The translations under genes and the position numbers were made by a program. A model generated the notes under the pieces. It saw only the letters and a list, made by a program, of their open reading frames with translations. It was not told the origin of the DNA and searched no databases. A stretch of DNA of 64,000 nucleotides, from positions 62,001-126,000 of the forward strand of contig QPGO01000178.1 in NCBI GenBank assembly GCA_008632985.1, in the 5' to 3' direction. The DNA comes from Psammoneis japonica. Taxonomy: Eukaryota. Positions within the stretch are counted from its first letter, which is position 1. The number at the start of each line of letters is the position of its first letter. Below are positions 11,653 to 49,892 of the stretch, one piece after another.

Positions 11653-11799
11653 ACCATGGAATCGTTAGGCCTAGTAGCTTGTAAATCGAATAGCGGGGTG
11701 TATCCTCTTTCTCGTTCACATCCAGCTGGCGAGAGTATATCGGGGCTCGTGCTAACTCTTTCCAAACCGAAAATACGTGTACCGGTAGCTATTGATAGC

Positions 11800-18576: not shown

Positions 18577-21500
18577 TTGTGTATACACACCACAGAAGGT
18601 AAAAAGCACGGAAAATGAAAATTTTAACTAATGTGCCTTTGCAAATTCTTCTATAAACAGGAACGAATCGCATCAGTTCTGCTGGAATCGATTTCCGAGC
18701 GGAAGAAGCTCAAGCCGAGCAGTACCTCAAGATGGAACGCTGTTTTTCGTCTACCAGACAAGAGGATTCGCTCTAATACGGTCTATTCCAAGCACCCAAG
18801 GATCAAGGGCTCTCAAGTACACCGCATTATCAAAAAATCTACACCAAGTCATGGTTGCAGAGAATGCAAGTTCCGAGTCGATCAGATCCGAGAAATACGT
18901 CTACCATGCAAGGAGAGACTATTGGAGAGTTTTTTGAGACCGAATCGATGATCCTCGAGTCCAAGGAGCAAGAGGGAATCGTTGGAAAGTACCTCAAGCG
19001 TCTCATAACTCATGTCCTCCGAGGAAATGCACTTCAGAATCAGGGAAATTATTTTCGAGACGACCTGAAGAAACCAGAGCCGCTCAACAGCAAGAAAGCC
19101 TCTGATAGACCCAAGAGGTCAACGATGAGAGTCTATACGACCCTCAGATGGATTCTAAGTCGAATCTAGCGGGAAACCGAGCGCTGATTTATCAGCTATC
19201 ACTCGCACCGCAAGGATGGCAGCATCAGCCTACTGTCCAAAATATTGAACCACTGGATCATACCCTTGACGAGCTGATTGAGGTTTGAGTCGTCTAGAGG
19301 TCGGCGAGGACGTCTGTGACAAAAAAACATATCAATTCAGGCTCTGATAGCGCAGTTGATTCCACAATCAAAAAGGTTCCAATTTTGGTTCCAAAAATGG
19401 TCTCCCACATGGTGCCAGAACAATCCAAAGTGAATGCAAGGTCTTATCTTTGAAAAAAGAACACCTGCATCACGGATTGAAGCTATTCTAAAAATGAACT
19501 AGCAAAAGAGTGCAAGGGTGACTCTGAAAGAGACCCAAAAATGCGCCGTTCAAATGGCAATCGCACGCGGTCGCGTCGCGATAACGAAAATGCCGCTCGC
19601 AAAAAAGAGTTGAACGTCATGGTTGATCAGGCGGTTCAAAAAATACTCAAAGCGAGTTCCTCGAACAAAGAAAAAGAGCATAAGGGCAAAGAAACAGATT
19701 CTGATACCCTCAGTGAAGAAAAATACCAATTTGATCGGATGATCCAGACTGAATCCGAAGAATAATTTTGGTCTATTCACGAATTGTATGCTTTACTGGA
19801 TATTAGGAAGCCTAGAAAAAAGGCAGAAATAATTCATACTAGTCCAGGAGTCATCATTTATATGAATACTTCCTTGGGAAAGGAGAGAAAAAAGCATCTA
19901 CGTGTTCCTATCGATAACGGAACATCGTCAACCATAATTTTGCGCAAATTCGTGCGAAAGTTGAGAACACAAGAATCCGCCACCAAAAACTTGGGAAACC
20001 AAGGGTGAGCTCTTTACGACTGATAGTAAACACCGAATTCAGTTCTCACTATGCGAAATTTAAGGCATACTGATATTCAAACAGTATATGTTGAAAACAC
20101 CAAATTTTCTTCAGGTTCAAATGATATGATCATGGGACGCGACTTAATGTCCAGTCCTGCAAGTCATATTGGACTACGCAAATGAAGAAATCTAATGGGA
20201 AGAAGCAATTACCTTATGAAGAATGTTCATACACTCTTCGATGCCGATGTTTTCAAGCTGAAAACCGATCACATTGAAAAATATGACGCCGTGAATAGAG
20301 TTAATAACGGAACCAATGGTCCTCGACTCACATTATCACGTCATCGATCCTAATCAAGTGACAACTACGGCGATGCATCTAACCCAAATGAACACAACCA
20401 ACTCAATCTTCTTCTTAAGAGGTTGAAATCTTTTTGAAAAGTTCCTCAGACGAATGTATGGGAAGAACCAGTGGATCTCATCGTGGAAAATCTGACGCGA
20501 TTCCACGACGCGTGAGAACCTTCTCCTATCATAGTCTTTGGAGGCGTCCAATCAAAAGGAGTTTGACCTATTATGAAAGATTGAAGTCTTAAGAATGAAA
20601 TTACTCTGAATAAGTCGCTCTGAGACTCATTGTCTAAAGAAAACAGGTCGAGTTCGACCGCATCCGACACTCAGAAGCTTAGTATAAGGTTCATACAGGT
20701 GGTGTATCCTTTACCCAATATTCAGGAAATACTATTGAAGCAAGAACGTTTCATATATGTAATCTATTTGATTCAAACATGGAATGCCACCATGTCAAAT
20801 AAAAAAAGCACACGTCGTGCTCACACGAAAATCATGCCGTGGGGAGAAAATGAGTACTATGGACTTCCAATGAGAATCTATAGAGCCCCAGATATTTTTA
20901 TACAACACTTGAGTGAACTCATAACAGGTTTGAAGTTGTCAGAACGACTATATGTGATCGTTTGTGCCTGACAAAAGTAACTTCAAAATATCACCTGTAC
21001 AAGTAACAGCTTAATACGGCATTCAAACGACTAGAACAGTCGCTTAGAAGGTTAACAACAAAAGTCCTTCACTATTTAACTTGAAATAAACTATCAAGAC
21101 TTCCATACGTAACGATATGCAATCGATTACAAAGAAAATGGAGGCGATTCAAGCAATCGCAACACGAGAAAAACGTAAAGAACACTACGACATCTCGTTG
21201 TCATACGTTACTATTATCGAGACATGTAGTCTCAACGATCTCCTGTACAATACTAGCCAAATTCACCTCAATAAAGGTCAAACGGCAAAAGTACAAGTAC
21301 GGAACGAAAAGTCTCCGAAAATATGGAGCGTATCAAATCAAAAACTATATTGTTATCATACACGGATTTCAATATTATACGTTACAACGGAAAAAAGAAC
21401 TTCTGTCCATAGTGAAAACACTTATAAAATTCCGAAATATACTGTTTGGCCAACAGATTTATACATATACGGATCATAAGACACAACGGACAAAGTCATA

Positions 21501-22561
21501 CGTTGACAACTTCAGTCCCGAATTAAATACAACGAGGGCAAGGCGAACATCGTCGCGATAGACGCGATCAGCCGACTTACTATAGAAAATTGAATCCTAC
21601 GACAATGTCCTACCGTTAAAACGGGATAAAGACATTCCCTCCAAATTGTCGGACGCGACATATCATACGAACACTTTTCGTGGAGGCGAGCGAGATCGAA
21701 AAATGCTCATGTCACAAGGATAAAATCGCCTTTTTAAAGGACGATTTAGGAAAAAACAGTGACAGATTGGTATACATTATACGTATCCACTTCACACTGG
21801 CAAAAGACAATCTCACAACACCCGTACGGTTGTATTGTACAATGTACGAGGCAAGACATTAAAATATACATCATGTCGACACACGAGATGTGCCAAAGAT
21901 CTAGAAAAAGAAAAGAAAAATGGACATTTATCCACTTAGTGCACGAAACCAGTGCCTTCGGAATGACAAAATAACACCGGTATGTCAGAAAGAAACGTCC
22001 AAATAACGATTAAAATCCAACTGATAGATGGTTGAAGTACAAAAAAAAAATCCATAATGGAATTCATAACCATCACAGGATTGATTATCAAGACGAAATG
22101 GTCATAATATCTTTGACCATCGTTTTTATTACTTATGAAACGTGGTAGTGCAGCAGAGCAATATGGCATATAAAGTAAGCCCGCCAAACTACATGAAATC
22201 CACAAGTAAGTAAGTGAACGCCATAATTAAGAGCGTACATTAAGTACTGGGCACGATGCTATGTACAATCGATATCAGGAAAAACACTTACTCCAGGACA
22301 ATTAGTCCTTGTGTTCATATCAACAAGAACGTCAATGAGAATACTCGACGTAATACTATATATATACATATTAAGTGAGAAACAAACAATGTCACTCTCA
22401 AAAGACATTCGGAAATTGGAACGGCCCTATATTGCCTATACAAAACAACAACAGTCATTGCTAATGGCACAATACAGTGAAGTGGAGACATTATTGACAC
22501 TGTCGATGTCCGTCGAATAATCCACTTACAAATGACTCTAATGTGCAATTAGGGAGGCGAA

Positions 22562-22928
22562 TGCAGTATGCGACTGTTATATACATATTTATGATTATAT
22601 ATTATTTATATGTCAATCGTACCACAGTCGTGGATGCGTACAAAGGACAGAACGATCACACAGAGTTGATCGGATGTCGAGAATTGCAAATACGATCGAT
22701 TGACGATGTTGACATCTTACGTGTCAATAGCAATCGTATCCGGACAATCTGTTGTCACGAATATATTCTCCGAAAGGCCTTTTGTCTGTAGAAGCAGTAC
22801 AGAAGCTTTAGGCCATTGAGAACTCATTCGGAGAAACCAAAAATCACAGAGTAAAATTTAATCTCATAATTTCCACTTTTCGTACACTATTCTACTTTCG
22901 TTTACACTCGTTCTTCGAGCATAGTGCA
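22562..22928 (+). repeat. 3' LTR (367 bp)
   Basis: Direct repeat of 18211-18576, preceded by polypurine tract. Confidence 0.95.
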
Positions 22929-25016
22929 CACTGGACATTTGCAGCAGCATTCCCACCCACTCTCAACCTTTGGAGCAGCTTGGGAAGCAGTGATGTCACT
23001 TTGTGAGCACCACACCAGCACACCCTAATCTCAGAGGTCAAGGCAGGGCCAGCAAAAAAAAAGACAGCTTGACTGGGCATGCTGAAGCAGCAAGAGGCGC
23101 AGGGGGTGACAGGAAAACAAGGCGAGCTGGCGACTTTGTGCGCATTGTCACCAGTGTGCCTTGTGTGTGTGCGCACAAGAGCATGGACAAAATTGACAGC
23201 ATTCTAAGTCAGTCTGAGGGTTGTGGCACCCCAAGTGAAAACGTTGTTGCTGTTTCATGAGCAGTGCACAGCGACCTTGATTTGAGCGCTGTTTTGGTGC
23301 CAGCTGGCACGGCAGCTTCATGATGTGAGTGCACAATCTCCAGCAAAGTTGGGCAAGCAAGCAACCAGCTCTGTGTCAGTGCCAACTCATTTTGCTGGGT
23401 GGGGCTCATGACCCACAAAGACAGAGAGGTCAGTTGCGTGCACCGACACACAGCAGTGCTCCTCACTTTCTCAAGCACTCCCTTGTGTGAAGCTGCATGT
23501 TTCAGAGCATGGTTTTTGCCATTTGCCCAGGCGTTTGGTGGCCATTGCACACAGCATTGCTTTGCCTCCTTTCCAGCTGTTCTGTCACACAACAGACCAC
23601 AAACAAGGGGCAAAAATGACGGCATTGCCTTTTCTCCTTTTTGTGTGCTTCCAGGACTTTTTTGGGTCTTTTGGCCCACCCCATTTTTGCTCTGTGTTTG
23701 CAACCCATGTGTCAAACACAGTGTCAAAAGATTGCTCCTGTCAGCCATGCCCCACCCAACTTTTCACCTCTGATGCTGTTGCTCAATTTCTCCTGAGAAT
23801 TTTGGCATTTTTGGCTTGCTGGTTGCGCTGATGTCGCTGTCTGCAGATTTTCTCAAGTCATGGCACATGGGTCAACCAAAGGTTTGCCACATTCCAAAGA
23901 AAATTTGTTGGAGGACTTGGCAAAAAGGTCAGCAAAAGCTGATCATCATAAATTTCATCATGCCAAGAGATGTGCAGCCAAGCTGCTCTTCTTTTCACAG
24001 TTGCCCCAGTGCAAGCTGCTCGGGAAACCTGTGCCTGGCACATGCTCTGGCTCCAGGTGGAGCTCCAACTCAGTGTGCTGGCTGCAGAAAAAAATTGCCA
24101 GGTGATGAACACATCAAAGATTGCCAACCGAAAACAAGAGAGATGGTTTTGTGAGTGCTCGAACTCCCTGCACTTGAACGAGCACATCATTTCTGTCTAA
24201 AAATGCCCAGCCAAGTGGAAGGTGATGCATGAAAATGCTGATGACAAATGAAAGCTCATGTGATGGCATGCAGCAGCACAAGGTCCTGCCCCCAGATCCA
24301 GTGGTGGAGTGCATCATCCACATCCACCACACTCCTGCACACAACCACCAGCAGGAGGAGATTGGGAGGCACATCAAAGTGTGCCACAGATGACAGATGC
24401 TGTGCAGCTCACTGCAGAGAAAGGTGCAATGCTTGTCATGAGCCCACTCAAACAAAGGAAGAGGTTGGGGTTTCTGTTTTAAAAAATGAGAGACTGCACT
24501 CACTTCAGAGGCTCAAAATGTGAGCTCTGTTGCCACGCTGAGTTCGGCTCAGACTGTGCATGATGGAATGCGTTCAGTGCAGATCGGAGACCAACAAGAG
24601 ATGGTGGTCTGTGCCCCCCCTGCATGAGTGAGGGGTTGCCTTCTGTGATCTGCTCTACATTGGATGGCTGACACAAAAGCAGAGCACGAGCCTGCGAGTG
24701 CCGTGCGAGCTGCAACTGGCTCTTGCTCACGCTCCTTTCTTTCATCAGTTTAAAACCAGAGTGCTTGTCCAAGAGTGCATCAGCCACCAGAGGAAAGCAG
24801 AGTCAAGAGCAACAGAGGGCAATTGACCTGCCGATTGAGAGTACAGCGAAATGCATGCGCAATGTCATCATCCAACTGAAGCATCAAGGAAGTTTCGCCT
24901 CGGCTGGGGGTTTCCGGATCGGCTCCATGTGCTCTGCCACAGTCAATTAATAGCGCTCGCTCCTGCGCGCACAATAAGCTCGAGCAATAGCGCGACTCCA
25001 AAACGCCAACACGACC

Positions 25017-27393
25017 ATGATGTTGACGGCGCCACGGCAACGGGTAAGGACCGCTGTAGATGCTACCAATGCGGAGGATACCAGCAAGAGAAAGTCGCTA
25101 TTGCTTCCAAAGCGAACAAGAGGGAAGCAAAGGAAAGCGCATAAAGTTTGGGAAATTTTCGGCGTCACACTGATGCTAGTTCTGCTGGTGGTGGTGTTTA
25201 CTCCAATAGCGACACATCAGCGGGGTTCAACGACGACAGGATTCGTCAACAACACTGTCCGATTCATCACGTCTCAAAAGCACAATATGACTTCATCGAG
25301 ACCGATACTAACTGCGTTTCTGGAGCCTTTTGATACGCTTCAGCAGAACATTCAGCCGCTACCGATACGAAACACCTCTGCGTCTCGCTTAACAAGGATT
25401 GAATACCCCGAGGTGAAGCAATGCTCGATGTTATCTGAGACCTTTCCTATTGATAACTTTCCCACGGGTGACCCTTTTTTGCCTTGGATTCATGATGTAT
25501 TCCCTACTTCGGATGGAAAATACATTCAGTTTGTGGCGCAGAACAAACGACGGTGCGATACGGGAAAGGATCACGAGAAAACTATGGAGCACTGGGAACC
25601 ACAGATTTCATTGTTTCAACCCGTGCCGATAAAGATTACAACTGATTCCAAAAATGGTGTAAAGACTGGTTTCCGACTGGCGACGTACGAAGAAGCTGAT
25701 GTCAAGGAAACGCGCTTTCTTTGTCGATTTCACTCTGGCAATCTCGAAGAAACAACACTGTCCGAATATCCCTTTAATTACGAATACATTAGTTGGCGTA
25801 AACACAGAGAGGGAACAATGTTTGTAAAGCAGGGGAAAGATGCGGCCAGCTTTTGGTTGTCACAGCTTTACTTTTCCTGTCCCGTGCCACCAGTATTTCA
25901 AGACCTGATACAGACGGGCAGCCATGTTCAGAATGACGTTTCAGAGCTCTTTGTAGATGTTGTGCCAATTCGAACTCCACCGAGAGACAAAAAGTTCCTT
26001 TTTAGCAAAGACCATGTGGGCGCTGAGCCTTTGGCAAGTCAAACTATCAAAGTTTTTGATGCAACGACTGAATGGGGATCGTATCACATTCTTCCGGAAA
26101 TCATTGACAGTGGCAGGTGGGCCAACATTCCGGTATGCCTTCCTCCCATTGCCAAGAAACGAAACCGACTCGTCGCCTGTACCTGGGCGGCAATGTCTTA
26201 TTCGCGACGAGGAGAATCTGTCCAGCTGAAAGACACGGCTGGACGATTCAGAGAATGGATAGAGTTTCACTCCATGGTGGGCTTTGATCAGTTGTTTGTT
26301 TACGACAATACAGTATTGGGGGATTCACCGTCCGAAATTGAGCGGATTGCGAGCGAGTATCCGGATACGGTCACCTACCATCGTTGGCCATGTCAGATTT
26401 GCAACAACAATCGACCGGCCCATGCAAATCCCGGCGAACGATCGAGCCAGTACGCAGCGGAAGCGAGCTGTAGGGAGCGTTATGGGTCAAACACAGATTG
26501 GATGGCCACTATCGACATTGATGAGTATCTGGTGCCGATGAAGGGGGATACTTGGGACGAAATCTTGGATGATATGGATCAAAAAGGCATGAAAATTTTG
26601 AAGCTGCGAAGCGCTCGAGCAAAGCCTCGAGTCAGACTGATGGAGTGAGTTGCTCTAGTGTCGTGTACCTTCGTTTCCATCCTTTTCGTCTTTTTTAACC
26701 GTTGTCCATCTATCGCAGGGAGTTACAGGATCAGTCTAGCTGCGTCGACACGAATGAACGTCGCAAGAAGGAACCCGATAGCTGTCTAGTCCCTCGGAAG
26801 GATCAAACGTTTCTTCGAGTGTACAACTGCGAATACATTAAACCCCCTCGACCCAGCCGCTTCGTCAGAGCCATGGTACGGCCCATTGGCACATTTTTCT
26901 CTTCTTTTCTTGTGTGTTTGCCATTCACACTTGTCGACTGCCGAAATTGTTTTTACAGAAACAAATCTACAGGCCGGACTATGTTTACAGCCACTTTGTT
27001 CATTACTCGACCGTGACGAAAGATATTGCCCGTTTGAGAAAGGATTATGAACCCTACGAGCGATACATTAGGAGCGTGCAGAGCGACGCTTGGCAAGCAA
27101 AGAGTCCCGAAGTCTTTCTGGATGAACTAAACGAAGGGAACTTGGTTCATACGCGATCTGTGCTGCCCAGCGAAACCACAAGACGAACAGATGAATGCTA
27201 CAACAGTTCTAAATTTGGTTGCATGATGGGCTACGAGTGCCCCGATTCTACAGAATTTGTCGATGCGATTCACCAGAAAAATATATTTCATGACGACGAA
27301 GGCAATTATTGCAACTGCTGGATAAACCATCGAATTGAAGATTTCTTTGTCCCCAAACTAGAAGCCGCGCTGGAAAGGGACGAAGAACGATAG
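25017..27393 (+). CDS. Glycosyltransferase family 92 (DUF23)-like type II membrane protein; introns 26645-26718 and 26876-26958
   Basis: N-terminal TM anchor; LVACTW, EWIEFHSMVGFDQLFVYDN, SQYAAEASC, WMATIDIDEYLVP; GT-AG introns restore frame. Confidence 0.8.
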
Positions 27394-27781
27394 AAAGCTC
27401 GAAATCGTGACCGATTCAAGAAGCTAGGGTTGTCGCGAACCCTGATTTCCCAACCAGAAGTTTTTTTCACGAACGAGGGAGCAGAATTGACAAATGGCTT
27501 CTCGGCTTGAAGTGTCGCGCAGAGCATCTTCAACCATATCGAGACTAGGCGAGTCGTCAATACGCGCAATCTATAGGAGATGGATGCGGTGTCTGCATTT
27601 CACCAAGCAGTGACTGATGACATCAATCGACAGCACCATCCTTTCATTTTGCGTCCGCCATTGCGCTATCGTTGTCATTGGATTTGTCGTCCACGGCGGG
27701 GCGAAAGTTAGTCACGAAACGCGACCAAGTCCATCCGGCGACCGGTTGGGTGCATTTTCGTGATGGTGAAGTCACAGTCTG

Positions 27782-28456
27782 ATGTCATCACATCGTGTCA
27801 CGGAAACGACATTGCGACGTCGTTCTTCATTCACCAACACCATAGTAGCAGCTTGCTCATCGACCATGGCGGCCTTCTTTGGAGGAGCATCGAGGATATT
27901 GTCAGCATTGCAGGCGAGGCCCGTTCTCTTCAATGGTGCAACAGGTTGCTCGCTATTTGGTGTTTCCGACGTGATTGCCCAAGGACTAGAGAAAGATGCT
28001 TTCTCATCATCAAGCAATGACGAATGGAGCAAAGTTGTGGAGAGAAGACGAATGATCTCAGCTGCATTTATTGGGTTCATGGCTTGTGGCTTCGTGTATC
28101 CCTACGCTTATTCAAAACTTGACAAAATCTGGGCTGGGGCTAATTTTTCATCGGTTGTGAAGAAATCCTTTCTGGAGATTGCGACGGTTGGTATATTTGT
28201 AAACTCAGTCAGCATCGCGTGTCGTGGCTTACTGGTGGGAAGAAACGGGGAAGAAGTTACAGTTCACGTTGCCTCAGAGATACCGAATGTCACACTTAAC
28301 GACGCAAGAGTTTGGCTCCCGTACAACATGGTAGCCTTCTCTGTTATCCCGGTACACATTCGACCGGCTACAACGTCTCTCATGGAAGCAATGTGGCAAA
28401 CGTATATAAGCTTATGCTCGCACAACTATGTTGAGACCGAGAGTGACGAGTCTTAA
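27782..28456 (+). CDS. Mpv17/PMP22 family membrane protein
   Basis: RPVLFNGATGCSLFGVSDVIAQ, RVWLPYNMVAFSVIPVHIR, WQTYIS. Confidence 0.85.
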   Translation: MSSHRVTETTLRRRSSFTNTIVAACSSTMAAFFGGASRILSALQARPVLFNGATGCSLFGVSDVIAQGLEKDAFSSSSNDEWSKVVERRRMISAAFIGFMACGFVYPYAYSKLDKIWAGANFSSVVKKSFLEIATVGIFVNSVSIACRGLLVGRNGEEVTVHVASEIPNVTLNDARVWLPYNMVAFSVIPVHIRPATTSLMEAMWQTYISLCSHNYVETESDES

Positions 28457-28684
28457 ACTTATCAAGAGAGCATTTTCATCGCGACCTGCCGGCGTTTGGC
28501 CCTGAGAATGTGAGCTACCACCACTTTTTGCTACTTCATGCTACCATTGCATAGAAAGAATAAACATAGAAACGACAAATCTGCTAACGATTCACGTGTT
28601 GACCATTTAATACACTCCCACAAAGACGGAATCACTCCGACATGAATCAGCAGTGTGCTCCTGCATCGTCAGGACGTACAGTAG

Positions 28685-29791
28685 TTAGTCCTCGTCTGAG
28701 TCATCAGTTACCTCCCAATCGTCTTCTACATCGTTCACCCACGAATCATAGTCCTCTGGCGCCCATGCACCCGGTGCAACCGTTGCTGTCATTGACAGGT
28801 CGCGTCTTTCTTCTACCTCGTCCGGTTCTATTTCTTCGTCAAGTTGCTCATGCTGGAGTGTCTCAAGAATGTCGAGTTGCACACCGGGATGGGGAATAGA
28901 AACTGGGTCATCAGGACCCAACATGGACTCTTGTCGTATTTGGCGTTCTTGTACTTTTCGTTTCAAACAATTGTCCAAGAATTTACGCAGCGCCTTCATG
29001 GCATCGTCGTCAAATTCTTCCCATAACTCAGAAGGTATTCGAAGATCCTGCTTCAAAAAGTCTTCGCACAGTACATCGGATACGGGACTCTGTCCTGCTT
29101 TCAGCGGAATGTTTGCAACAGAATCAAACAGTTTCAACTTGTCGGCAGTGATAAATCCCACAACACAACCACCAAAGATACTGACGATGGCATCCAAAGC
29201 CAAGGTGATCGGTTTGGTCACAAGCCAGCCCTCGCGAAAATAGGTTGTGCCATCCTTTCGTGTTACAATACGATTATGCAACGGGCTCTTTTCAAGCCTT
29301 GTGCTAGTGAGCATTTCGTTTTCTCGACCTTTCAACAACAAACTCCACGGCCAGAAAGGTCCCTTGTGTATGGATCGATTCATCCACCGAGCACCAGCCC
29401 ATCGCAAAAAGCAAAACTGAGTAACCGCTGCAGCAGTACCCCAGAAATAGGCTGGCCTCATGCATTTCTTGAATTCATCAAAGTCCGTGTTGTTTTCTTG
29501 AGACATTTTCGCATTCCATTCTCCGGAATCGAACTTTTTCTGAAGGATATCCGCAAACGACTTTGTAATCAATTCGTCGATTCCCATGTTGTTTAGATCA
29601 GGACGAAAAATTGGAATATGAACTGGAATTGGATCTTTGAGATCATCAGTTTCCTTTGCTACCGGATAACATTGAGAGTTGTCGTCATGTAGGGTGTCGT
29701 TCTCGCTCGTTGCAGAATGTGGACGTGGTGCATACACACGGTTCTCTGCATTCTCAGCTCGACGAGCTTCTCTTGACGATGAGTCGTTCAT
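28685..29791 (-). CDS. Hypothetical two-TM protein with acidic C-terminus
   Basis: Intact ORF of about 370 aa with two hydrophobic segments and IPLKAGQSPVSDVLC motif. Confidence 0.7.
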   Translation of the reverse strand: MNDSSSREARRAENAENRVYAPRPHSATSENDTLHDDNSQCYPVAKETDDLKDPIPVHIPIFRPDLNNMGIDELITKSFADILQKKFDSGEWNAKMSQENNTDFDEFKKCMRPAYFWGTAAAVTQFCFLRWAGARWMNRSIHKGPFWPWSLLLKGRENEMLTSTRLEKSPLHNRIVTRKDGTTYFREGWLVTKPITLALDAIVSIFGGCVVGFITADKLKLFDSVANIPLKAGQSPVSDVLCEDFLKQDLRIPSELWEEFDDDAMKALRKFLDNCLKRKVQERQIRQESMLGPDDPVSIPHPGVQLDILETLQHEQLDEEIEPDEVEERRDLSMTATVAPGAWAPEDYDSWVNDVEDDWEVTDDSDED

Positions 29792-31036
29792 ACCTGAAAT
29801 TTCTCCTATTTTGACCAGTGTGAATAGTTGATAGAACACCTAATACCTACTATGGTGCTGTGTGTAAGAGTTCATTGGATGACTTTGTTTTCCGATGAAC
29901 AGTTCCGCTCTCAGCAGGCTACAATTCTCCCATGGCAATTTGGCAATGCCGCTGAATATTTATCGCGGAAATCTTTCAATTGAATCCGCATGATTTTCCC
30001 GAGCTCGTACCGCGAACCGCTCACAAGGTGGCTCTGCACATCAAGACGCGAGATTCAGCGCTGCGGAAGAATCTCTAGGGCCTAGAGTAGAGAACGGTGA
30101 CAGCTCTAGCTGCTGTAGAGAGCAATTGGTAGAGTAGACTTGGAGTGAAGAGTGCAATCATTAGTTGCTGATTGATTGGCTCCCAAGAGAGGGAAGTTGC
30201 TTGCTCGCCACACAAGAAGCTTTGTTCTTGCCAGTGTGCTCCTGCACTGGGTGCTGTGTCCATTGTGCTTGTTTTGTGTGGCGCAGCTCCAACAACTTTT
30301 GACCCAATGAGATGTTTTGGGCCTTCTCATCTGTGCTTGTCAACAACATTGTGGACAAACACCAATTGAAGTGTGGAAAGCAATGTTCTTGGCCACCATT
30401 CTTGCCACAGGTCAAAACTGCCAAAAAACCCACAGGTTGGAGAGCTCCTCCTCTCTGGTCACCAAGAAAAAAGAAAATGTGCCATTTTCAGGCCACACCA
30501 CACAGCTGGCAAAAATGCCCAACTCAAGTTGCACCATGTGCTGACACTCATTGTCTGTGACAAACATGGCAACAGGGGTGCAAACAACATCTGGGACACC
30601 AATGATCCAGGTGTCGCACCAGCCGTCAAGATTTCTTGAAATAAAACCCGACATTTTCTCCCTTCAATCCAAGATCGTGCTGATTTGACAAGTCAGCTTT
30701 TCTGAAACATTCAACAACAAACATCCATGTTCCTCAATTCAACTGTTTGCCCCCCCATCCGACAAGCCTCATGGGCACATTTGGCTCCATTTTAATTTCT
30801 GGATTGTGTGTTGATCAACTTTCTGGATCAAATCAAAATCGCCGCCTGTGTCTGTCAATCTAGATTCTAATTGTTTTCTCAATTTTCTCTCCCTGCCCAT
30901 TCCATCCTTCCTTCCCGTCCATCCGCACATTGCATCTCCATGTTTCTGCCCTCACTGTGTCCCCAAGTGATTGTTGCTGCACCCGCTGTTTCCTTTCGAT
31001 TCTCTTCTCAACTCCTTCGTCCATGTACATCGGCCA

Positions 31037-33929
31037 TGTCATCTGATGGTCTTGTTTGTCCATGGTGCAAACGAACCGGTTTCTTTTCCGAACGTGGCCT
31101 CAGCAGGCACATTGCAACCAACTGCCTCCGTTCCGCCGTTTCCACCAAGTCTTTTGGTTGTCCTCGTTGCGGACAACGTGGATTTGACTCTGAAAACAAC
31201 GTGCAGTGTCACCTGTCTCGGCACTGCACCGCAGCATCTGGTCTCCATCCCCCATTGACACAGTTGCGCCGTGCAACCCAATTGTCTTCTTCATCCAGCG
31301 GAACATCTCTTTCCTCTCATCCTCTGGATTCTGCCTCCATCGGCTCCCTTGGATCCAACACCAACAAACCCAAATGTCCCCATTGCCGTGTTCCCTTTTC
31401 CAACATTGCCCTTCATCTACAGAAGCACTTGCCCTGCCGTGAAAAGGAGGAAATGTCCCTTCGCCTGCATGCCGCATCTTCCACTGCCGCCCACACACTT
31501 CCCCCTCCAGATGACGACCATGATGAATCACTGGACGACCATGACAATCCTGCTGGGTTTGGTTTCTCCGACGACGAACCCCCTCCTCCCCTCCCTGAAG
31601 TCCTTTGGAGTCCAGCTCCATCTCCTCCCACACCAATGGACAACTCTTCTCCAGCTTGTCCTCCCTCTGCTGGAAGTGGACTGCACCCACCCTCCGTCAG
31701 ACACTCTGGTCGATTGCGTTCAGCCGCCAACGCTGCTGCCGCCAGTGCAGCCTCCCAAAATGTCCGCCGATTTGTTTTGTTTGCAGATGATGGTGTGTCT
31801 GCCCTTGGAGAGGACAGTCCTGTGGATGTTCCTGAGTTCATTGGAGCCAACCGTCACGATGGCAGTTGTGCCCCCCCTCAATTTCCCGTCCGACAGAAGA
31901 TCCTGTTTCCTCCCTCGATCAACACAACCCTCTTGGCCCACTGCGTGACATCGCACCCGATGAGGATTTCGATGCACCTCCAGTCTGCTCACCCAGCATT
32001 GTGCCCATGGCACGTTTGCCACATTTGTGTCGTCGGTCAGGTGCTGCAATTGACTTTGTCGACAAAGCAATGAGAATTTTGCATGAAGAGCATGCAGAAA
32101 AAAGACTGGATTTGTCAAAGCCACCCATCACTGCCGCCGTGGTGATGAAGCAACTCCTGGGGTTGTTTCCCAATGTTCCTCTCCCCCGCACTGCTGCTGC
32201 TGTGATGCTGGAATGCAACAATCCAACACAGCAACAGAAGGATGGACCCAAATGTCGTTGCTCCCCACCTTTCCCGGTTTGCAGTTTCACCGAGACCTTG
32301 CAGGATCTCTTCGCCGAGCCAGTGTTCCGCAATCTTTCCAAGTTGCAGGTTAATCCAAATGATGTCTGGTCACCTCATGTGCCACCCCCCACCGATGGCA
32401 ATTTGGAACCCAGCGCTAGCCCGGCTGACGGTTTTGAGATGTCGTTCCCGGATTGTCCTGGTGACTGGCAATTGTCCACTCAAAGTCAAGACATGGGTGA
32501 CGGCGAGTGGCAACAACGTTGCACCAATGCCAAGGAAACGGCATCAGATTTTCACATTCACCTTGTTAATTGCTCGGACAAGACCGGAGTCAATGCGGTC
32601 AATCCTCACGGGATGGAGCCTGCAATGTGCTCACTTGCCATGATTCAAGAGGATGCACGCCGTGACTGCCGTTGTTGGCGTCCACTTGGATTCACACCCA
32701 ATTTGGACAGGAAAGACAAGAAAGACAAGCTTGGGCACCTTGTTGTTGCCAACTGTCACCGCATTCTCAAGGAGGTCCTCCGTGGTCTGCTTCATTGCCA
32801 GGTGAATCCACCCATTGTTCGTGCAACAACAGGCACTCAATGCCGCCATGTCAGAGCTGTGATGCATTGCAACTCCCTGTTGGGGGACATCCTCAATCAA
32901 GAACGCATTTGTGGAAGAGTCGTGGGCAGAAGCAAGACCGAGAGGTTGTCTCACAACTGCCATGTGCCCTCCCACCGTTCTGATGACCCCCTTCATGTCT
33001 GCCAATTTTTTTAACCAAGCTTTCATGGAGTTGCTCACTGCAGCTGCATTGGGTCTGGATCCAGAGGATGACAACAGCCGTTGGCACCAGCATGTTAAAA
33101 GCGTTTCCCAGAAACATCGCACAATGACATCAAAAAAAAGGCTGAGACTGAGCTGGCTTCATCCCTCATTCGCCGAATGACTGCATGCCACAAAATTTTG
33201 AGAAAAGTGTTTGGACAGCACGCAGTGGACAATGCTTGCTTTCCACCCAACATGGGCGACAACCCACGTGGTGCATTTGGCATGACCGTTGCTGACATGA
33301 TGCATGTGTTGGAGGCGGGCATTGTCCCTCAAATGATGGAGGCAATCATCGGAGAGATGTCTGCCAAACAGAAAGAGGAGTGCAACCGTGTTGCATCTGA
33401 GTCATTCTGCACATCCCATTGTTGTCCAGGTCAGAGATGTGACTGCCCGCGAATTCGAGTTAACGGGGGACTTTCCACACTCAGTCAACTTGTGTGTGAC
33501 GAGAAGATGGGAAAGCTTCTCGCACTTGCAATCATTGGTCACACACACGCTGGTAGAAAACTGCTGGAAAAAAGGTGTGATCCATCCTTTGACAGCAAAA
33601 AGAAAAAGACAGCTGATGGCTTTAAAGGAAAGAAGCAACAAGATGAACAATTGACCGAATCCTCAGAAAGTGAACCCAACAATGAGGACACTGAGCCCGT
33701 TGAACCATCCAATGAACAAACCAGCACAACCAACACAAGCCAGGTTGATGAGAATGCGGCTGTTGCACTTCCTAAAGAGACATGGTCTGATGTCACCTGC
33801 GACCCATCCAATCTTCATCACCGAAACTGTGTGATGCAACAGATGCATCGTCATGGACTTTCTGAATTTTGGGAACCATTTTCCAAGCAACTGGACAACG
33901 ATCACTTTCTGACACAACCATTGGATTGA
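31037..33929 (+). pseudogene. Plavaka-like transposase with N-terminal C2HC/C2H2 zinc fingers, frameshifted and truncated
   Basis: CPWC..H..C, CPRC..H..C, CPHC..H..H; HLVNCSDKTG, GMEPAMCSL, WRPLGFTPNL, NCHRILKEVL, GDILNQERICG, VDNACF...GAFGMTVADMMHVLEAGI, PRIRVNGGLSTLSQLVCDEKMG; no Tyr in ORFs 30871..32073, 31866..33014, 33177..33929. Confidence 0.75.
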
Positions 33930-34048
33930 TCTGTGTGGTGTCACATGAAGTCACCATGAGTCCTGCGGTGGCGGCCTTGTTGCGTGCACAAAGAAATGAA
34001 CATGGGGAATTGAACTGATTCCAGTGTGCAGGTGGCGATTCAAGTTCA

Positions 34049-35071
34049 GTGGTGACTCCCACAGAGGGATGTCTTGTGTTGGATCGTGCACCGGTGGTGG
34101 GCGAGAAATTGACAGCATCGATGTTGACCAAGGTCATCAATGAGAGTGTTTGGCCATGTCGCAAGTTCACAATCTTCAATCATGAACTCGCCGTGGGAGG
34201 AGATTGCATGAAATTGGTTCTGCAGGAGTTGAGGAGCATGGCATCTTTGCCGGAGAAGTTCTGGGGAGAACACAAAGAGGTGCTCAGGACCAAACTCAAC
34301 CGAAAGAGAAACAATGTGCAGGACAACATTGGGAGGAGAATGACAGGTGAGCAGATGTGTGCATGCCGGTGATTGTGTTGGAGGCGATTGTCCAACGGGA
34401 TGAGTGTCTCTTCCTTTGCCATTGTCTGTGCAGTTGCTGCTTTAGAGGGATCGCTGGTGGCTTGCAAAGACTTGACAAAGGGAAGAAATGACAAGGACAC
34501 ACACGCATGGTTCTTGGAAACTGTGGTGCCAACGGTGGTGGGACAAGCGCAGTTTGGCAGAAGCACAGCCGACATGCTTCAGGAATGGCTTTCGGTTTCG
34601 TTGGAGGCATTTGCTCTGCTGGTGTGCTTGAACTGCTGCAACAAGGTGAAGGACACGGCAGAGAAATTGGAAAAGGAAGAAAATGTTGCAAGGAGAAGAA
34701 AGCCAACTGTGAAAGATGCTGCTCCTGCAAAGTGCACAGCACAGGCGGTGGGGGAATCGGCAAAAGAGGAACCAAGGATGGAGCAAGGAGGGGATCAAGA
34801 AGTGCAATGATCCACATCAGTGGGTGGTGAAAGACAGAGAGAACAACCAGGGATTCAGTGCATGGTTCAAGGAGAGAAGGCGAGAGAAGACAAACTTGTC
34901 TCAGGAGGAAAACAAGAAACGCAAAAGAGAGGAAAAAAGAAAGGAGAGAGAGGAAGGATGGGCGGCGCCAATGGGAGAGGACCTGCCATTGCAGGCGGTG
35001 GCTGCAGGCAATGGAGCGGCAGCAAACACCACAATGGCCACCAACCAAACTGGTGTGCAAACTTAATTTGA
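34049..35071 (+). pseudogene. Accessory ORF of the transposon, degenerate
   Basis: VINESVWPCRKF, FWGEHKEVLRTKLNRKRNN, WFLETVVPTVVG, SVSLEAFALLVCLNC, AKCT, GWSKEGIKKCN...VVKDRE, a motif series I recognise from accessory ORFs beside Plavaka-type transposases. Confidence 0.55.
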
Positions 35072-35701
35072 AACAAACAATGAAATCCAGATGAGCGAAA
35101 ATTAAAAAAAACATTCTGTGACACAGTTTAGATGCAACAACATGTGGCAAGACAAGTTGGCAGAAAAGGAGGGTGGATTGCAAGCAGCAACATTTGTGTC
35201 AAAAGAACGAGAAACCCCAAATGTCAATTGGGGTGTGGGTCTGCATCATGTGAAAGGAATGATCACACTTGAAAGTGAGAAGCGATTCAGGTTTTAGAAG
35301 CTCACAAACTTGCGCAGTTCTCATGTCACATCCAAGGAGAGAATTGGCTTGTAAGTTGACAACAATCTGGCATCAAAGTCAAGAAATGCCCAGATTGTGG
35401 CAGACGGTCAGACCCAGATCATTGGCGTCCCAGATGAACTGCCCCCAAGGCCGCAACATTGCTGCTCACAAACCACAGGCTCAAGTTCAAGAAATGGGCT
35501 GGTGTGTTGCCTCAACGGAAAAATCTTTAACATCCACAACTTAGGATGATTTTACACATGCCAATTTGCAACCTTTTTCGCAAACATTTGGTCTGTCATC
35601 TGTCCATCAGAATGTGGATTTTCATGACCCTTCAGGCCTTTTTCACCACGACACAGCACGGCACAATGGCGCCGTCACGCCGTCGCGATTTTGAGCACAA
35701 T

Positions 35702-35795
35702 GGAAGGTGGGGCATCGGTCGCCGATGATTGCATCAGTCCCTTTCGATGCTCTAAAGGCTTGAATGTGTTGTCGGCGACCGATGCCCCACCTTCC
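35702..35795. repeat. Perfect 24-bp inverted repeat with 46-bp spacer
   Basis: GGAAGGTGGGGCATCGGTCGCCGA (35702-35725) and its reverse complement (35772-35795). Confidence 0.95.
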
Positions 35796-37639
35796 TTCAT
35801 TGTGAAAATGCTGTCTCTTTTTCGCCATGGCCGCACCACGCAAGCATTGAGCGATCTTGCGCAGGCTTGTGAAACATTGCATTTTACATTCAATGTGCAA
35901 TTCTTTAGAACCATGCAATGCACACAAAAATGATCTTGCACAAGAAAAACAACTGTGAACATTTTGTGGTGACAATGAAAATGCATGTAAAATGCAATGC
36001 ACAAATGTGCATTTCCTAAATGTGTGTCCCGCACGCTCCGACGCGTGGCGAACTTCTTCAAAAATCACCTTCAATGTTCAGCAACAGAGGTGGAAACGGC
36101 GATTGTTTTTACAAATCCATTTGTTGCACATTAACACACATGTTGTCACCAACAGAAAACAACTGAAAACATTTTTTCAAGGCTTAAAATGTGTGTTAAA
36201 CATTTGCATTTAAATCCATTGTGTTGATTGATGCAACATTTTACAAGCCTGATCTTGCGAGCGATGACAAGGTGCATGCATCTCTGCATGATTCAGTGCT
36301 CGTCATTTGAGTTTCCAATTTTCTCACACCAACATCATCAACCGTCATCGTCATTCGTGCAGCCATGGCATCCAGCAAGAAAAAGAGTGGCAACACAGGA
36401 AAGAAAAAAAGTTGTTGTCCCATTGAAAAGAGAGTTGACAATGCTCTCATTCTTTTTGACAGCACACGTCTTGGCAAGCTTTGATGGGAAATGGCCAAAC
36501 GCAGGAGACATTCACCGTGTGCTCCAGGTTGGCGGCATTCCAGGCAGAATGGCCCAAGTGATGTGCCGGATTCAATCCAGAAGGGATCTGGATCCAAGGG
36601 CTTGGTTTCATTTCGCAGAATGTCTGATGACAATGAAAGGTGCAGCCGTTCAGTGAAATTTGAATCTGACCCCGATGCTCCCGAATCTCAAGCCCACATT
36701 CAAATTGAATCATTCAGGATTGACTTGTCGGCGCACTGTGTGGTTCACATGATTCCCTTGTTGCATCTGTTGATGCTCACATTGCACAATCCACCATGAA
36801 GTCATGCAACAGAATGGAATGATCTGTTTTGTGGTGACAGCGATTGTGGCGGCATTGATTTTTTCAACTGCCATTGCAGTTGGTGACATTGCATCTAGAG
36901 TTGCAATTTGCAATGTCATCACATTCTTTGAAAGCATCCTCTTCTTCAGACAACTCAGCTGCCGGCATCCACACATGCAGTCGTCATGGTAAAGAAACAG
37001 CTCTCGCTTTTTCTTCAGTGTTGGAGGGAGAAAAAAATTCTCAGATTGCACGTAATTTCAGCACCGAAACACACGCAGAACAGACAGCAAAAAGACGCGC
37101 AGGCCAACCCATGTTCGCAAAATGGGATTCACGTGGCGGCCCTTCACACCAGCCCATTTCTTGAACTTGAGCCTGTGCACAAACAGCTCCACTGCACCAC
37201 TCTCCTGCCCCAGCCCAAGTTGGCTGGCCAGAAGCCGTGGCAGGGGTCCCCAGGAGTCACAAAGCCTTTCTCTCTTTGACGGGTTCCAGTCCTAGGTGGG
37301 ACTCCGTGTGACATTGGGCCCGTAGAATTCTACGTGCGAGCTCCGCAGTACTAGAATTTAATTAATGGATATATTTATCTTCAACATCAAATGAACTGCC
37401 AAGTTTGTGGTACAATTATGCCTCTTGCCACTCGACGTTTCTGCAAATGCGCCTGCCCTACGCGATTCTTAAGACATTATAGAATCGCGCTGTAACAAAA
37501 AATGTCAAAAGTTGTTGGACGGATCGCTCAATAAATAAGTGTACCGTAAAATGACACAAAATATCGAAAAAATCACGTAGAAATCTACGTGCGCGACATA
37601 CGACGTGATTCAAAAAACTATCATGTCACAGTTCAGTAG

Positions 37640-38232
37640 TACGAGGTCCCACCTAGACCTGGAACGCGTCCTTTCTCCACAGACCAAGTTTGCCATGTTT
37701 GAAGGAGGAGAGCACACAGAACTTGGCTCTGGCCCCATCCACCGGCAACAAAAAGGATGACAACAGCCCTTCTGCTGTGCAGCTGTGGTGGCTCCCTTTG
37801 GCTCCTTCAAATGATTTGGTGATCAAAATGAACCTCTCTGCATTGACTCCAAAAGGTGAACATCAAATGGGGGTTGGGCATGTTGACAGTGGCTGTCAAC
37901 CTGTGCCTTCACCTGATGACTCAAGTTGCAATGTCGACATGCTGGTGTGTCCAGCAGGTCGTGATGAGTGGAGTGAAGAGATCAACTCAATTGCATTGTG
38001 CAGCTTTTGACTTCAATGGGCATGCTTGCTTGTTTGGGGACAGTGATCAACAGTGCCACTGACAACTGACAAGAAAAAGAGCTGTTTTCTTGCCGCACAT
38101 GCTTGGGGTCCCATTCCCTTTGCCAACACCATGATGCTGAGCTGAAATTTAAAACCAACGGTGTGCCTGGTCACCGAGTGCAGGACGGAACAAAAATGTG
38201 CAAGCCAGAGGGGCAGATCTAACAGCCACGTA
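37640..38232. mobile_element. Short TpA-depleted non-autonomous element
   Basis: Ends TA|CGAGG...CCACG|TA; about 2 TpA between 37680 and 38230; left end resembles the reverse complement of 37278-37308. Confidence 0.55.
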
Positions 38233-38239
38233 GTGTGAT

Positions 38240-39010
38240 GCCACTGATTTTACTCTTTGGGTTCTAAGGTCGGATTCGAGCTATCTCGGCTGCGCTGTAA
38301 CGCATGCTGGCTGGGATGGATCGAACAATGACACACCATCTGTAGCAGCAATCCATCATCCAAGGCGATGTGAGAAACGGATCAGCTTCGAGAATGATCA
38401 AGTCTACACTTTGGGAACAGCAGGGAAGGCAATGATCTCAATGGGGGCTTCATTCAAGTTGACGACTGGGACATTGGAACTGCTGAAGGAGGTGAGAAAT
38501 TAGGTTGTGTTATTTCGTGTCTTAATTGCGTCCGGAAAGAGGTGATTATCATTTACGGTGTTGCTGTCAGTAGGCTCTTCGGGTTCACCACTCTTTAACC
38601 AAAATCATCATATTGTCGGGAACATTTGTCGTGGATTGGCTGCGTGTGGTACCGATCGCCCTGACGGGTACGGAAAGCTACATTTTGCATGGAACCGTCG
38701 TGGGACAAGTGCAACAAGGCTTCGTGACCGACTTGATCCCGAAAACACCGGCGTCGTGACACTGGATATGTTTGACCTAAGTGTGCCAACGAAGCCACCA
38801 ACAGAGTCAACAAAAAGCTCCGACAAGATCGCCTACAAAATCTCCAACACAATTTGAAATCGCCGGCAATTTCGCATGCCCCTTCAGTAATTCCAGCAAA
38901 GTTCTCTACGGATGTACCTTCAGCAGTTCCGTCACAGTCACCTACTGATGCTCCTTCAGCAATTCCGACACAGACGCCGACCGAAACTCCGCCGCCTATA
39001 TCCCCATCTT
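38240..39010 (+). pseudogene. Lysyl endopeptidase (Achromobacter protease I-like, S1) serine protease relic with P/S/T-rich tail; intron 38492-38572
   Basis: AGWD, AAIHHP..EKRISFE, DWDIGTAEG|GSSGSPLFNQNHHIVG, GLAAC, DGYGKL..AW; upstream part missing and heavily frameshifted. Confidence 0.7.
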
Positions 39011-47623: not shown

Positions 47624-49892
47624 TACAGTGCTATTNNNNNNNNNNNNNNNNNNNNNNNNNNNNNNNNNNNNNNNNNNNNNNNNNNNNNNNNNNNNNNNNN
47701 NNNNNNNNNNNNNNNNNNNNNNNNNNNNNNNNNNNNNNNNNNNNNNNNNNNNNNNNNNNNNNNNNNNNNNNNNNNNNNNNNNNNNNNNNNNNNNNNNNNN
47801 NNNNNNNNNNNNNNNNNNNNNNNNNNNNNNNNNNNNNNNNNNNNNNNNNNNNGTACGCGCAAGTGGCATTAGCTTCGACTTGTACGACTAAAATCTCAAT
47901 AAATATTCTGGAGCTCGATCGACCTCGAAAATTTTTAAAATTCCTTGCTTACATGCATGAAAGGCTGTTTCACGGAATCCCATTCAATGACACAGAGCTG
48001 CATGTTTCAAGATGTTATTCCAACATCAAAACTGCTGTGGCATTTGGAGCACCTTCCATGGCCCTTCCCTTTGCTCGTTTGAGTGACCGTTCCTTAGATG
48101 TGCTCCAAATGGCAAGCTTGTTTTGACCACAAAGCAGCAGCTTCAAATTGGTGCTCCAATTTCTGTGCAGAATGTGCGCAATTTTCCAGTGCATGACGTC
48201 AAACAGCGAACACTCGATCGTAAAATAATCCTTCGTAAGCTCAAACTGGATTTGTTGGCCGATGATCGTCTCATCCTTTCCACACTGATGCTTTTGAACG
48301 CTTCTGGTGTTGGTCAATTGCCCACAAGTTGTGGCGCTGTCTTGTGACTTGAGCAGCTCTTTGTAAAATGGGTTCAGCCCAGTTCTCAGCTCTGAAACCG
48401 AGTGCGATCCAATGTCTTTGTTGCTGAGCTGCCATTGATCTCCTTCCCATCTCTAAAAGACAAAGCCAGTGTGATGTCAATGGGGCATTCTTGTGCTTCA
48501 TTTTACACTGTGGAATCATCCACTGCCACAAACGAAAGCTGTCCATGGAAGACATCTGAATCCATGACACAAACAAGCGGAGTTGGATGTTTTGATGTCG
48601 CACCTTTCGATGGAGACCGAGGTGGCATCGAGCATGGCTTGCTTGTCAAAGTCACCAACAGAACAGACAGAAACTCAGAAACTCGCTGCACTCCTTTGGC
48701 AATGTTTGAAAACGGATCGGGGTGTCGATGCAACATCCATTCAATCCAAAGATTTCTCCACATGGCTTGTGCATTCATGGCCTTGGCGAACTGCACCTCG
48801 GACGATTGGAGCACGGCATTTGTCAACAATGAAACCCTGGAAAATCAAGTGAAAGAGCAGCAAAACACTGTTTGGTGTTGGGCGTTTGTGATGAAAATGC
48901 GAGGTTAACACCAACAAGCAACTCGCATTTTCTTTGGATTTTTGCCTTGTGTTGATGTTGTTGATTGTCTAGATTGTGGCCAAAGAGTGCGCAGTTTCAA
49001 AGGAACATGTGAGTTGGGAAGAGGGTTGCGAGTGACGTGCCACAGGTTTGATGACAATTGACATGGTTTCAGCAGCGCAACAGCTGCGAACCGACGAACG
49101 CCGCCATTGCCGAAGATTGGAGAAAATGGTTGATGTGGCATGATTTTTGTGTGCCAGACACATGCGCACAGTTCTGCGCTGGTGCAAAAAAAACATTTCC
49201 AGAAGTGCGAAGCTGCGCCGCTTTGAACCACTGTCTGCTGAAATGCAAAATTTGCGAATCGCAAATTAATTTATAAAAACAAACAGCTCGAATTTTTTCA
49301 CGATGAAAGCACGTGCGAGGTCTCTGAGTGCTTCATTTTTCACTTCAAATGAGCAAGTGATGCTGTTTCGACAACCGAAGGTCTGCAAGTGACATGAAAC
49401 AACAAACCAATCAGATTGTTGTCATTGTGAAGAGCCACATGACGTTTTGTTTGTGAGGAAAGGCGGTGCAATCATCCAAAAAGGTCATTTTTTGTTGAAA
49501 TCTTGCGATGCGTCGGCGTGAGTTGCTGTCACGAGAAGGCAATTTCCTTTAAAAATGAGGATTTCTTGTCATTTCTCGTGCATCACATCTTTTCTTGATC
49601 GAAGCAGAAAGAATGCCTGCACCTTGAGTTGCACCAGAGGATGTTGGCCGCGTCGCAAAGACGATCTTGGAGGGTGACAAGGGTCGTTTCTCGACTCACC
49701 GCGCGATGATTGTGCGGGGATTCGGAATTTGTCGCAAAATTTTGCGATGTCGCAAATTTTTCGATTCGGCAGCTGGGGGGGGGCAGGGAGGAAGAAAAGA
49801 GTGAGTTACCTACACACTGACGCATGACGAACTAAGCCAGCATTGCTCTAACGTTTGTACATACGTGCACTTTGCGTAGCCTCTGTACTGTA
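47624..49892. mobile_element. Degenerate TpA-depleted repeat with TA|CAGT...ACTG|TA ends, spanning the gap
   Basis: TACAGTG at 47624, CTGTACTGTA at 49883-49892; about 15 TpA in 47950-49800. Confidence 0.55.
47636..47852. other. Assembly gap (N run)
   Basis: Run of N. Confidence 1.

Follow-up and report, generated by a model that had tools for sequence, protein, structure and literature searches.

Graded context of TpA loss in transposon relics of the diatom Psammoneis japonica suggests DNA-level hypermutation of mobile DNA

Hypermutation of foreign DNA directed at TpA steps has, as far as the literature searched extends, been described once, in 2026, in one alga, Bigelowiella natans. Here we report what is probably a diatom instance of this phenomenon, found in 64,000 nucleotides of Psammoneis japonica (GenBank assembly GCA_008632985.1, contig QPGO01000178.1, positions 62,001 to 126,000 of the forward strand; this whole stretch is hereafter the window), where six blocks of DNA, one of them holding the relic of a Plavaka transposase, are strongly depleted in TpA. 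In mutation-accumulation lines of B. natans, 231 of 302 nuclear mutations fell within an integrated nucleocytoplasmic large DNA virus (NCLDV) and a virophage; of these 231 hypermutations, which lay in silent integrated viruses, 230 were changes of the A>G or T>C type, and those that were GC-biased fell without exception on TpA (Mettrop et al., 2026; bioRxiv 10.64898/2026.01.13.699255). The de novo rate, ~6e-7 per site per generation and ~1000 times background, was episodic and confined to some lines. The B. natans genome also holds 124 TpA-poor, CpA- and TpG-rich clusters, its TpA-depleted coding sequences are enriched for DDE and reverse transcriptase (RT) domains, and the authors propose an ADAT2-like adenine deaminase (Mettrop et al., 2026). 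The main text of that report holds no flanking-base analysis and no diatoms (the words “trinucleotide,” “flanking,” “downstream,” and “diatom” have 0 occurrences in it). We found no literature on TpA depletion, or on A-to-G hypermutation of repeats or hypermutation like the repeat-induced point mutation (RIP) of fungi, in diatoms; in the available portion of a DNMT survey of diatoms, RIP is mentioned only through DNMT4.

A two-state hidden Markov model, accompanied by a sliding count, delimited the six sharply bounded blocks, which total 14,576 bp and contain 79 TpA. Across them the observed/expected ratio (o/e) of TpA ranges from 0.02 to 0.11 and that of CpG from 0.20 to 0.73, while TG and CA both lie at 1.5-1.9. 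The gene-bearing flanks are spared: in the 49,423 bp outside the blocks TpA o/e is 0.54-0.66 and CpG is ~1, with the exception of one 388-bp segment (TpA 0.93) that belongs to a miniature inverted-repeat transposable element (MITE). The blocks, and two undepleted mobile elements with which we compared them, are listed here, with survivors of the form YTAR (Y, pyrimidine; R, purine) counted where they are discussed below; LTR stands for long terminal repeat.

2234-3243: depleted block; 1 TpA (GTAA), o/e 0.02; CpG 0.31.
22923-24947: depleted block; 8 TpA, o/e 0.06; CpG 0.27; TG 1.75, CA 1.80; YTAR 5/8.
30163-37279: main depleted block (block A); 38 TpA, o/e 0.08; CpG 0.52; TG 1.68, CA 1.55.
37668-38219: depleted block beyond the MITE; 1 TpA, o/e 0.03; CpG 0.20; not high-copy.
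47951-49648: depleted block, the least depleted; 14 TpA, o/e 0.11; CpG 0.73; YTAR 6/14.
53502-55675: depleted block; 17 TpA, o/e 0.11; CpG 0.60; YTAR 15/17.
18211-22928: LTR retroelement, recognized by repeat families and an RT_RNaseH match at 21085-21561; undepleted and AT-rich, the young-element control.
37278-37670: MITE-like insertion of ~390 bp, whose 30-nt terminal inverted repeats are 83% complementary; internal control.

The assembly has gaps at 2394-2396 (3 N) and 47636-47852 (217 N). The second ends ~100 bp before the block at 47951-49648, so that block may be cut short.

An earlier reading made from the sequence alone had proposed that roughly two thirds of the ~40 TpA surviving in 30160-37300 are YTAR, and direct counting bears this out (28 of 40), as it does for each of the 11 positions given as examples. 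The classes in that stretch are TTAA (14), CTAA/TTAG (10), CTAG (4), GTAA/TTAC (8), CTAC/GTAG (2), GTAC (1), and ATAA (1). TAT/ATA is nearly absent, as had been claimed, since ATAT, ATAC/GTAT, and ATAG/CTAT are all at 0 and ATAA has its single site. The accompanying claim that TAC/GTA is rare holds in relative terms only, given that 11 of the 40 survivors contain it. YTAR is indeed the sole class with no TAY on either strand, and the same bias recurs in both other stretches that had been named (5 of 7 in 22933-24840; 18 of 22 in 53400-55740). Pooled over the six blocks, YTAR accounts for 53 of 79 survivors, compared with 348 of 2134 TpA in the rest of the window (odds ratio 10.5, Fisher p 1.4e-22) and 52 of 344 in the two undepleted mobile elements. 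The excess is significant separately in 30160-37300 (28/40) and in the other blocks (27/41). Taken block by block from 5' to 3', the counts are 0/1, 5/8, 26/38, 1/1, 6/14, and 15/17; the pattern is weakest in 47951-49648, where four survivors belong to TAT-containing classes.

The bias persists after correction for composition. Relative to the expectation from the blocks' own dinucleotides, TTAA is found 2.9 times as often, CTAA 1.75 times, and CTAG 1.66 times, and, of the classes that contain ATA, the three lacking TAA do not occur at all (chi-square 67, p 5e-11). Outside the blocks the bias runs in the opposite direction, with TTAA and CTAA under-represented. We fitted models of NTAN depletion against three baselines, namely all background, the two undepleted mobile elements, and base composition. 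Uniform depletion of all NTAN contexts, the outcome that would have spoken against the sequence-only reading, was rejected with each of them (deviance 112-165, 9 degrees of freedom [df]). The TpA context bias is thus real and highly significant.

Survival relative to background density is sharply graded among the ten NTAN classes. It is 0.95 for TTAA, 0.46 for CTAA/TTAG, 0.23 for CTAG, and 0.20 for GTAA/TTAC, then 0.06 for ATAA/TTAT and 0.04 for both GTAC and CTAC/GTAG, and 0 for ATAC, ATAG, and ATAT. These ten values factor nearly exactly into one survival factor for each half-site, read as 5'-TAN on its own strand: with the background baseline, TAA ~1.0, TAG 0.43, TAC 0.17, and TAT 0.04. With each of the three baselines this multiplicative half-site model gives an acceptable fit (deviance 7.7-11.0, df 6, p 0.09-0.27). 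The order of loss is TAT > TAC > TAG >> TAA, and each step is significant (half-site hazards kT>kC, p 5e-4; kC>kG, p 4e-4; kG>kA, p 7e-7). A preference for T-A-Y had been inferred previously, and that part stands, as each strand read separately fares worst with a pyrimidine after the A, and TAT worse than TAC. The lumping of TAG with TAA as TAR does not stand, because a division into pyrimidine and purine is too coarse and a four-level model does better (likelihood ratio 35.5, df 2, p 2e-8): the TAA half-site is hardly touched (survival ~0.65-1.0, depending on the baseline) and TAG is clearly attacked (~0.43). An A at the second position downstream of the adenine protects further. TAAA, TAGA, and TACA survive at 0.70, 0.37, and 0.14, outliving their sister words 2-5 fold (p 2e-6, 6e-6, and 0.008, respectively), and the pooled survivors give a logo resembling T-T-T-A-A-A.

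The loss is specific to TpA. Words containing AA, CA, and GA are not depleted in the blocks, AAA/TTT standing at 1.24 of background. Among TC words, TCA is at 1.19, TCC at 1.00, and TCT at 1.00 of background, and TCG, at 0.44, reflects CpG decay. Context dependence of the CpG loss is mild, ranging from 0.27 of background for TCGA up to 0.86 for GCGC. We considered a single deaminase with a 5'-T preference acting on both A and C, and dropped it because of this mild context of CpG loss and because TC words other than TCG are not depleted. For the products, each asymmetric context was written with its faster half-site on the top strand. NTGN' had gained more than NCAN' in six of six such contexts, for instance TTGT +76 against TCAT +15 and CTGT +51 against CCAT +10; in two of the six, CpG decay would favor the opposite product. 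This is suggestive of a target word centered on the mutated pair, T-A-Y on one strand being R-T-A on the other.

Evidence on the direction of change comes from block A, which contains the following coding relic:

31836-33926, plus strand: Plavaka (KDZ/CACTA-like) transposase relic in one frame, without any tyrosine.

In-frame stops interrupt it at 33012 (TAA), 33069 (TGA), and 33096 (TAA). An exhaustive protein search returned 346 homologues with E<=1e-3 (lowest E 1.9e-65), whereas a word-indexed protein search with the same relic found nothing; in tblastn the homologues align in a single frame over 31932-33641 and beyond. The Pfam match to PF18759 (E 1e-4) is weak and lies under the curated cut-off. 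Ten columns have Tyr in 30% or more of the homologues; in these the relic has Cys at three (TGC, TGT, TGC), His at two (CAT, CAC), Gln at four (CAA in each), and Asp at one (GAC). In a MAFFT alignment of 105 homologues with the relic, seven columns have Tyr in at least 40%, and there the relic has three Cys, two His, and two Gln. Both Gln columns match a Gln in the nearest normal homologue (P0001), so those Gln are ancestral, and where P0001 has Tyr the relic has Cys. The alignment thereby indicates TA as the ancestral state, codons of conserved Tyr (TAY) having become Cys (TGY) or His (CAY) codons.

Two further homologues, P0038 (1290 aa) and P0064 (1127 aa), both from environmental assemblies, have one Tyr each, compared with at least 1.16% (median 2.9%) in the other 148 of the 150 homologues listed. 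At the seven MAFFT columns, P0038 has three His and one each of Cys, Tyr, Lys, and Phe, and P0064 has six Cys and one His. Such bimodal Tyr content suggests an all-or-none process, and by these protein sequences the signature appears to be present in at least two further Plavaka lineages. P0038 and P0064 are probably hypermutated relics called as genes, predicted as intact proteins because TA-free DNA is without TAA and TAG in all frames. Metagenome scans with the window's open reading frame (ORF) and with P0064 confirmed no locus. An exhaustive check of codons found that TA>TG/CA never turns a sense codon into a stop (0 cases), which is why such relics keep very long open frames. TG and CA showed no bias relative to one another in any of 17 successive 500-bp segments across 30163-38662; since the two rise equally, both DNA strands were hit, and editing of a single RNA strand is excluded.

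In a blastn comparison of all six blocks with the whole window, the sole match was one 33-nt inverted repeat inside block A. As the blocks lack mutual DNA similarity yet carry the same signature, the signature belongs to the host and not to one element family. Pfam searches of their ORFs gave no match for 16 of 18, the other two being weak and below cut-off, and left four of the six blocks with no identifiable origin; the block at 22923-24947, which adjoins the right LTR of the undepleted retroelement, had no Pfam match for its four ORFs and no recognizable domain. A match to the DddA-like domain of double-stranded DNA deaminase toxins in 33099-33926 (plus strand, residues 159-233; E 0.01, with a score of 16 bits where the cut-off is 25) sits in a Lys/Glu/Ser-rich low-complexity part of the transposase relic and is probably due to chance, and a WH2_Lhr match in a depleted-block ORF (E 0.03, below cut-off) was treated likewise. 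An Rfam scan of the window found no family.

Copy number was taken from the depth of contigs in a DNA run of the same organism, in which single-copy flanks are at ~62. Block A is high-copy from ~30614 to 37286, with a depth of 1,666-4,955 in most bins of 30618-37286 and a dip to 406 in the bin at 35748-36260; its family comprises tens of copies with a similarity of 80% or more. The block at 22923-24947 is essentially single-copy (depth 65-73 over 22923-24461), and the bin at 37800-38300 has a depth of 34. Because both of these stretches are depleted and not high-copy, present-day repetition is not required. Depth of ~34-35, compared with ~62, is seen both at 37800-38300 and at 29696-30614, flanking the transposon relic, and these are possibly hemizygous or haplotype-specific stretches. 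Other family copies of block A seem about as TpA-poor as the window copy. Among places where family and window copies differ, 81% are transitions; the 40 of ~870 such places that were listed include one private GTAT>GTGT change in the window copy, relative to 15 family contigs, and two CA-versus-TG double differences.

We favor DNA-level TpA hypermutation of silenced mobile DNA in a T-A-N-N context, with adenine deamination as its most likely agent, and regard this account, taken whole, as having an even chance of being right. The data above show the depletion and its direction, the involvement of both DNA strands, the ranking of contexts, and that genes and two young elements are spared; the chemistry is an inference. 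The A:T pair of a 5'-TA-3' step would change to G:C, yielding TG or CA depending on the strand. On each strand the hazard would be set by 5'-T-A-N-N, decreasing in the order T > C > G >> A at the first N and further reduced by an A at the second. Under such a rule TTAA, CTAA/TTAG, and CTAG would be the survivors, because a TA would persist only where neither half-site is a good target. The underlying chemistry may be enzymatic deamination of adenine in T-A-Y to hypoxanthine, which is read as G, and the process would be of the same kind as the TpA-only hypermutation of B. natans. An adenine deaminase is plausible as the agent, being the simplest reading and, by analogy, one that matches the 5' T of tRNA A34 editing. 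In TadA and ADAT2, too, a T (U33 in tRNA) precedes the edited A and the product is read as G. Bacterial TadA reads U-A-C-G. The preceding T is likewise found here, where the loss is specific to TpA.

Several considerations weigh against this account. The evidence consists of 79 survivors in one 64-kb window, and ancestral TpA numbers were approximated from the background, the two young elements, or base composition, and not from reconstructed ancestors. The product test, too, takes the background as its proxy, and TG and CA also arise by CpG decay. In the transposase relic, both of the His codons at Tyr columns are preceded by T, which makes them poor half-site targets (2 of 2). Between family and window copies, 315 places show A>G or T>C differences and 377 show G>A or C>T; being about equal both ways, they fit depletion either before or after amplification. 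The retroelement with 99% identical LTRs and the very-high-copy MITE are both untouched, so current activity is not implied, and their condition fits either past or selective activity. The deaminase itself is putative. In natural ADAT2/3 substrates, to our knowledge, A34 is followed by G, A, or C and not by U. The downstream context differs as well: TAT > TAC > TAG >> TAA here, and GAA for amphioxus ADAT2 (BjADAT2), which on Escherichia coli DNA favors GAA as the context of A and TCG as that of C and is, in the accessible part of that study, the only ADAT2 with a measured DNA context (PMC10354150).

Oxidation of thymine is a live rival to adenine deamination, although we judge it unlikely. Here a TET/JBP-type dioxygenase would convert the T of 5'-R-T-A-3' in silenced elements to 5-hydroxymethyluracil (5hmU) and further to 5-formyluracil, with occasional pairing to G and hence T>C. 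R-T-A and T-A-Y being complements, the same footprint would result, and our context test is unable to separate an A-centered from a T-centered word. In GGGTTA repeats, base J occupies the T of the TpA step on either strand, and in fungi TET/JBP genes are found as companions of Plavaka/KDZ elements. We know of no 5hmU in diatoms, and 5hmU pairs normally with A. In dinoflagellates, according to the part of the report available, TET/JBP homologues make 5hmU, mostly on repeats, and thereby silence transposons, and older work cited there has it replacing T preferentially in the dinucleotides TA and TC (PMC11572971). A TC that was marked and mutable should fall, however, and the TC words free of CpG do not (TCA 1.19, TCC 1.00, and TCT 1.00 of background).

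Less probable again is that the changes arose as a side product when methylated repeats underwent error-prone repair synthesis. Repair of mismatches from 5-methylcytosine deamination would recruit a polymerase of the pol-eta kind, making W-A>G errors (W, A or T), and TpA would decay along with CpG. Pol-eta does have a WA error motif, all six blocks are CpG-poor (o/e 0.20-0.73), and TpA and CpG depletion agree in rank across them (Spearman 0.81, p 0.05, n=6). However, the loss is confined to TpA, AA not being depleted (AAA/TTT 1.24 of background), and TAA, a WA-rich word, is the least affected. In block A the remaining density is ~0.13 of the start for TpA and ~0.5 for CpG, so that TpA fell much further, which is hard to obtain as a side-effect of CpG repair. 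The mutations of B. natans, moreover, come in bursts and in some lines only, as its main text describes them (Mettrop et al., 2026).

We consider it improbable that TpA was erased evenly and that the present sites were created later by ordinary C>T change such as TC>TT. In keeping with such creation, the blocks abound in TCA and TTG words, and the survivors are chiefly words that contain TTA. Nevertheless, a creation-only model with rates set by the 5' neighbor fits badly (deviance 24.4, df 6, p 4e-4, compared with 7.7 for the survival model), predicting 15.5 ATAA/TTAT and 3.6 ATAG/CTAT, compared with the 6 and 0 observed, and TC>TT does not explain the seven CTAG sites. Most improbable of all is that no mutation process acted here, the elements having arrived TpA-poor, whether native or foreign, or their RNA having undergone ADAR-type hyper-editing fixed by reverse transcription, for although the family copies seem about as TpA-poor as the window copy, dissimilar blocks share the signature, TGY and CAY, precisely the products of TA loss, stand where Tyr codons are conserved, block A is a DNA transposon, and the equal rise of TG and CA leaves no single edited strand.

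The undepleted retroelement has LTRs of ~370 nt at ~18211-18576 and 22562-22928, which are 99% identical, a TpA o/e of 0.76, and a CpG o/e of 1.19. The MITE, with TpA o/e 0.92 and CpG 1.42, is inserted into depleted DNA and splits it; it has inner inverted repeats at 37318-37336 and 37574-37592, reaches a depth of ~152,000 compared with 62 for single-copy DNA, and is also covered by a small run (X3). Contigs of an RNA-like run (X2) scarcely reach the depleted blocks, which represents missing cover and not evidence of silence. Within a minus-strand gene at ~25011-28917, a contig from that run skips GT..AG introns at 26645-26718 (74 nt) and 26875-26957 (83 nt). Elsewhere in the window, direct repeats at 11785-12311 and 14290-14823, ~2.5 kb apart and 85-93% identical, look like a tandem duplication of an O-methyltransferase gene region (ORF 14294-15640, minus strand), and a fused beta-alpha nitrile hydratase gene lies at 5852-7342 on the plus strand, its best named relatives being in Seminavis robusta and Nitzschia (55% identity); on these grounds the host was taken for a raphid pennate diatom.

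If one TpA-editing enzyme works both in this diatom and in B. natans, DNA editing of invading elements would be “stop-free,” erasing tyrosines and TA-rich regulatory words without nonsense codons, and the four-base footprint T-A-[T>C>G>>A]-[not A] would describe what that enzyme recognizes and could guide its identification. The diatom footprint would extend TpA hypermutation to a second major lineage, one of great ecological weight. As a quantitative specificity, the graded context is something against which candidate deaminases or thymine dioxygenases can be tested in vitro. For annotation, long Tyr-free open frames in TA-free DNA are a flag for hypermutated relics, as opposed to genes.

Among known systems, fungal RIP resembles the present case in being a transition-only hypermutation of mobile DNA with a dinucleotide preference, sharp borders, and a footprint in dinucleotide ratios. 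RIP, however, makes C>T changes at CpA and so produces TpA and stop codons; when we looked for these, we found TpA depleted and TA>TG/CA creating no stops. Duplication, moreover, is not evidently required here. CpG decay, as known from methylated transposons, has affected these blocks too and yields the same TG and CA products, but it cannot remove TpA, which fell much further than CpG. Dinoflagellate 5hmU marking is likewise a modification from the lineage of Stramenopiles, Alveolates, and Rhizaria (SAR), placed on repeats and reported to favor T in TA; it differs in being a mark and not a recorded mutation process, and in favoring also TC, which is undepleted here, so far as the available text goes (PMC11572971).

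The closest likeness is to B. natans. In both organisms TpA gives TpG or CpA on either strand, as a footprint here and not as observed events; foreign or mobile and largely silent DNA is targeted and host genes are spared; long-term TpA-poor, CpA- and TpG-rich clusters carry transposase and RT domains; and the process is not tied to copy number, the NCLDV region being single-copy there and the block at 22923-24947 here. The host, however, is a diatom (Stramenopila) in our case and a chlorarachniophyte (Rhizaria) in theirs, our targets are transposon relics that offer a footprint only, without live mutations, and depletion is far deeper (o/e 0.02-0.11, compared with a Rho of 0.45 given in their main text for the NCLDV region). 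That the same TpA-editing enzyme works in this stramenopile and in the rhizarian, as part of an old defense at least SAR-wide, is a tentative proposal that we would place somewhat below an even chance. What the present analysis adds to the B. natans description is the T-A-N-N hierarchy, a graded and testable specificity.

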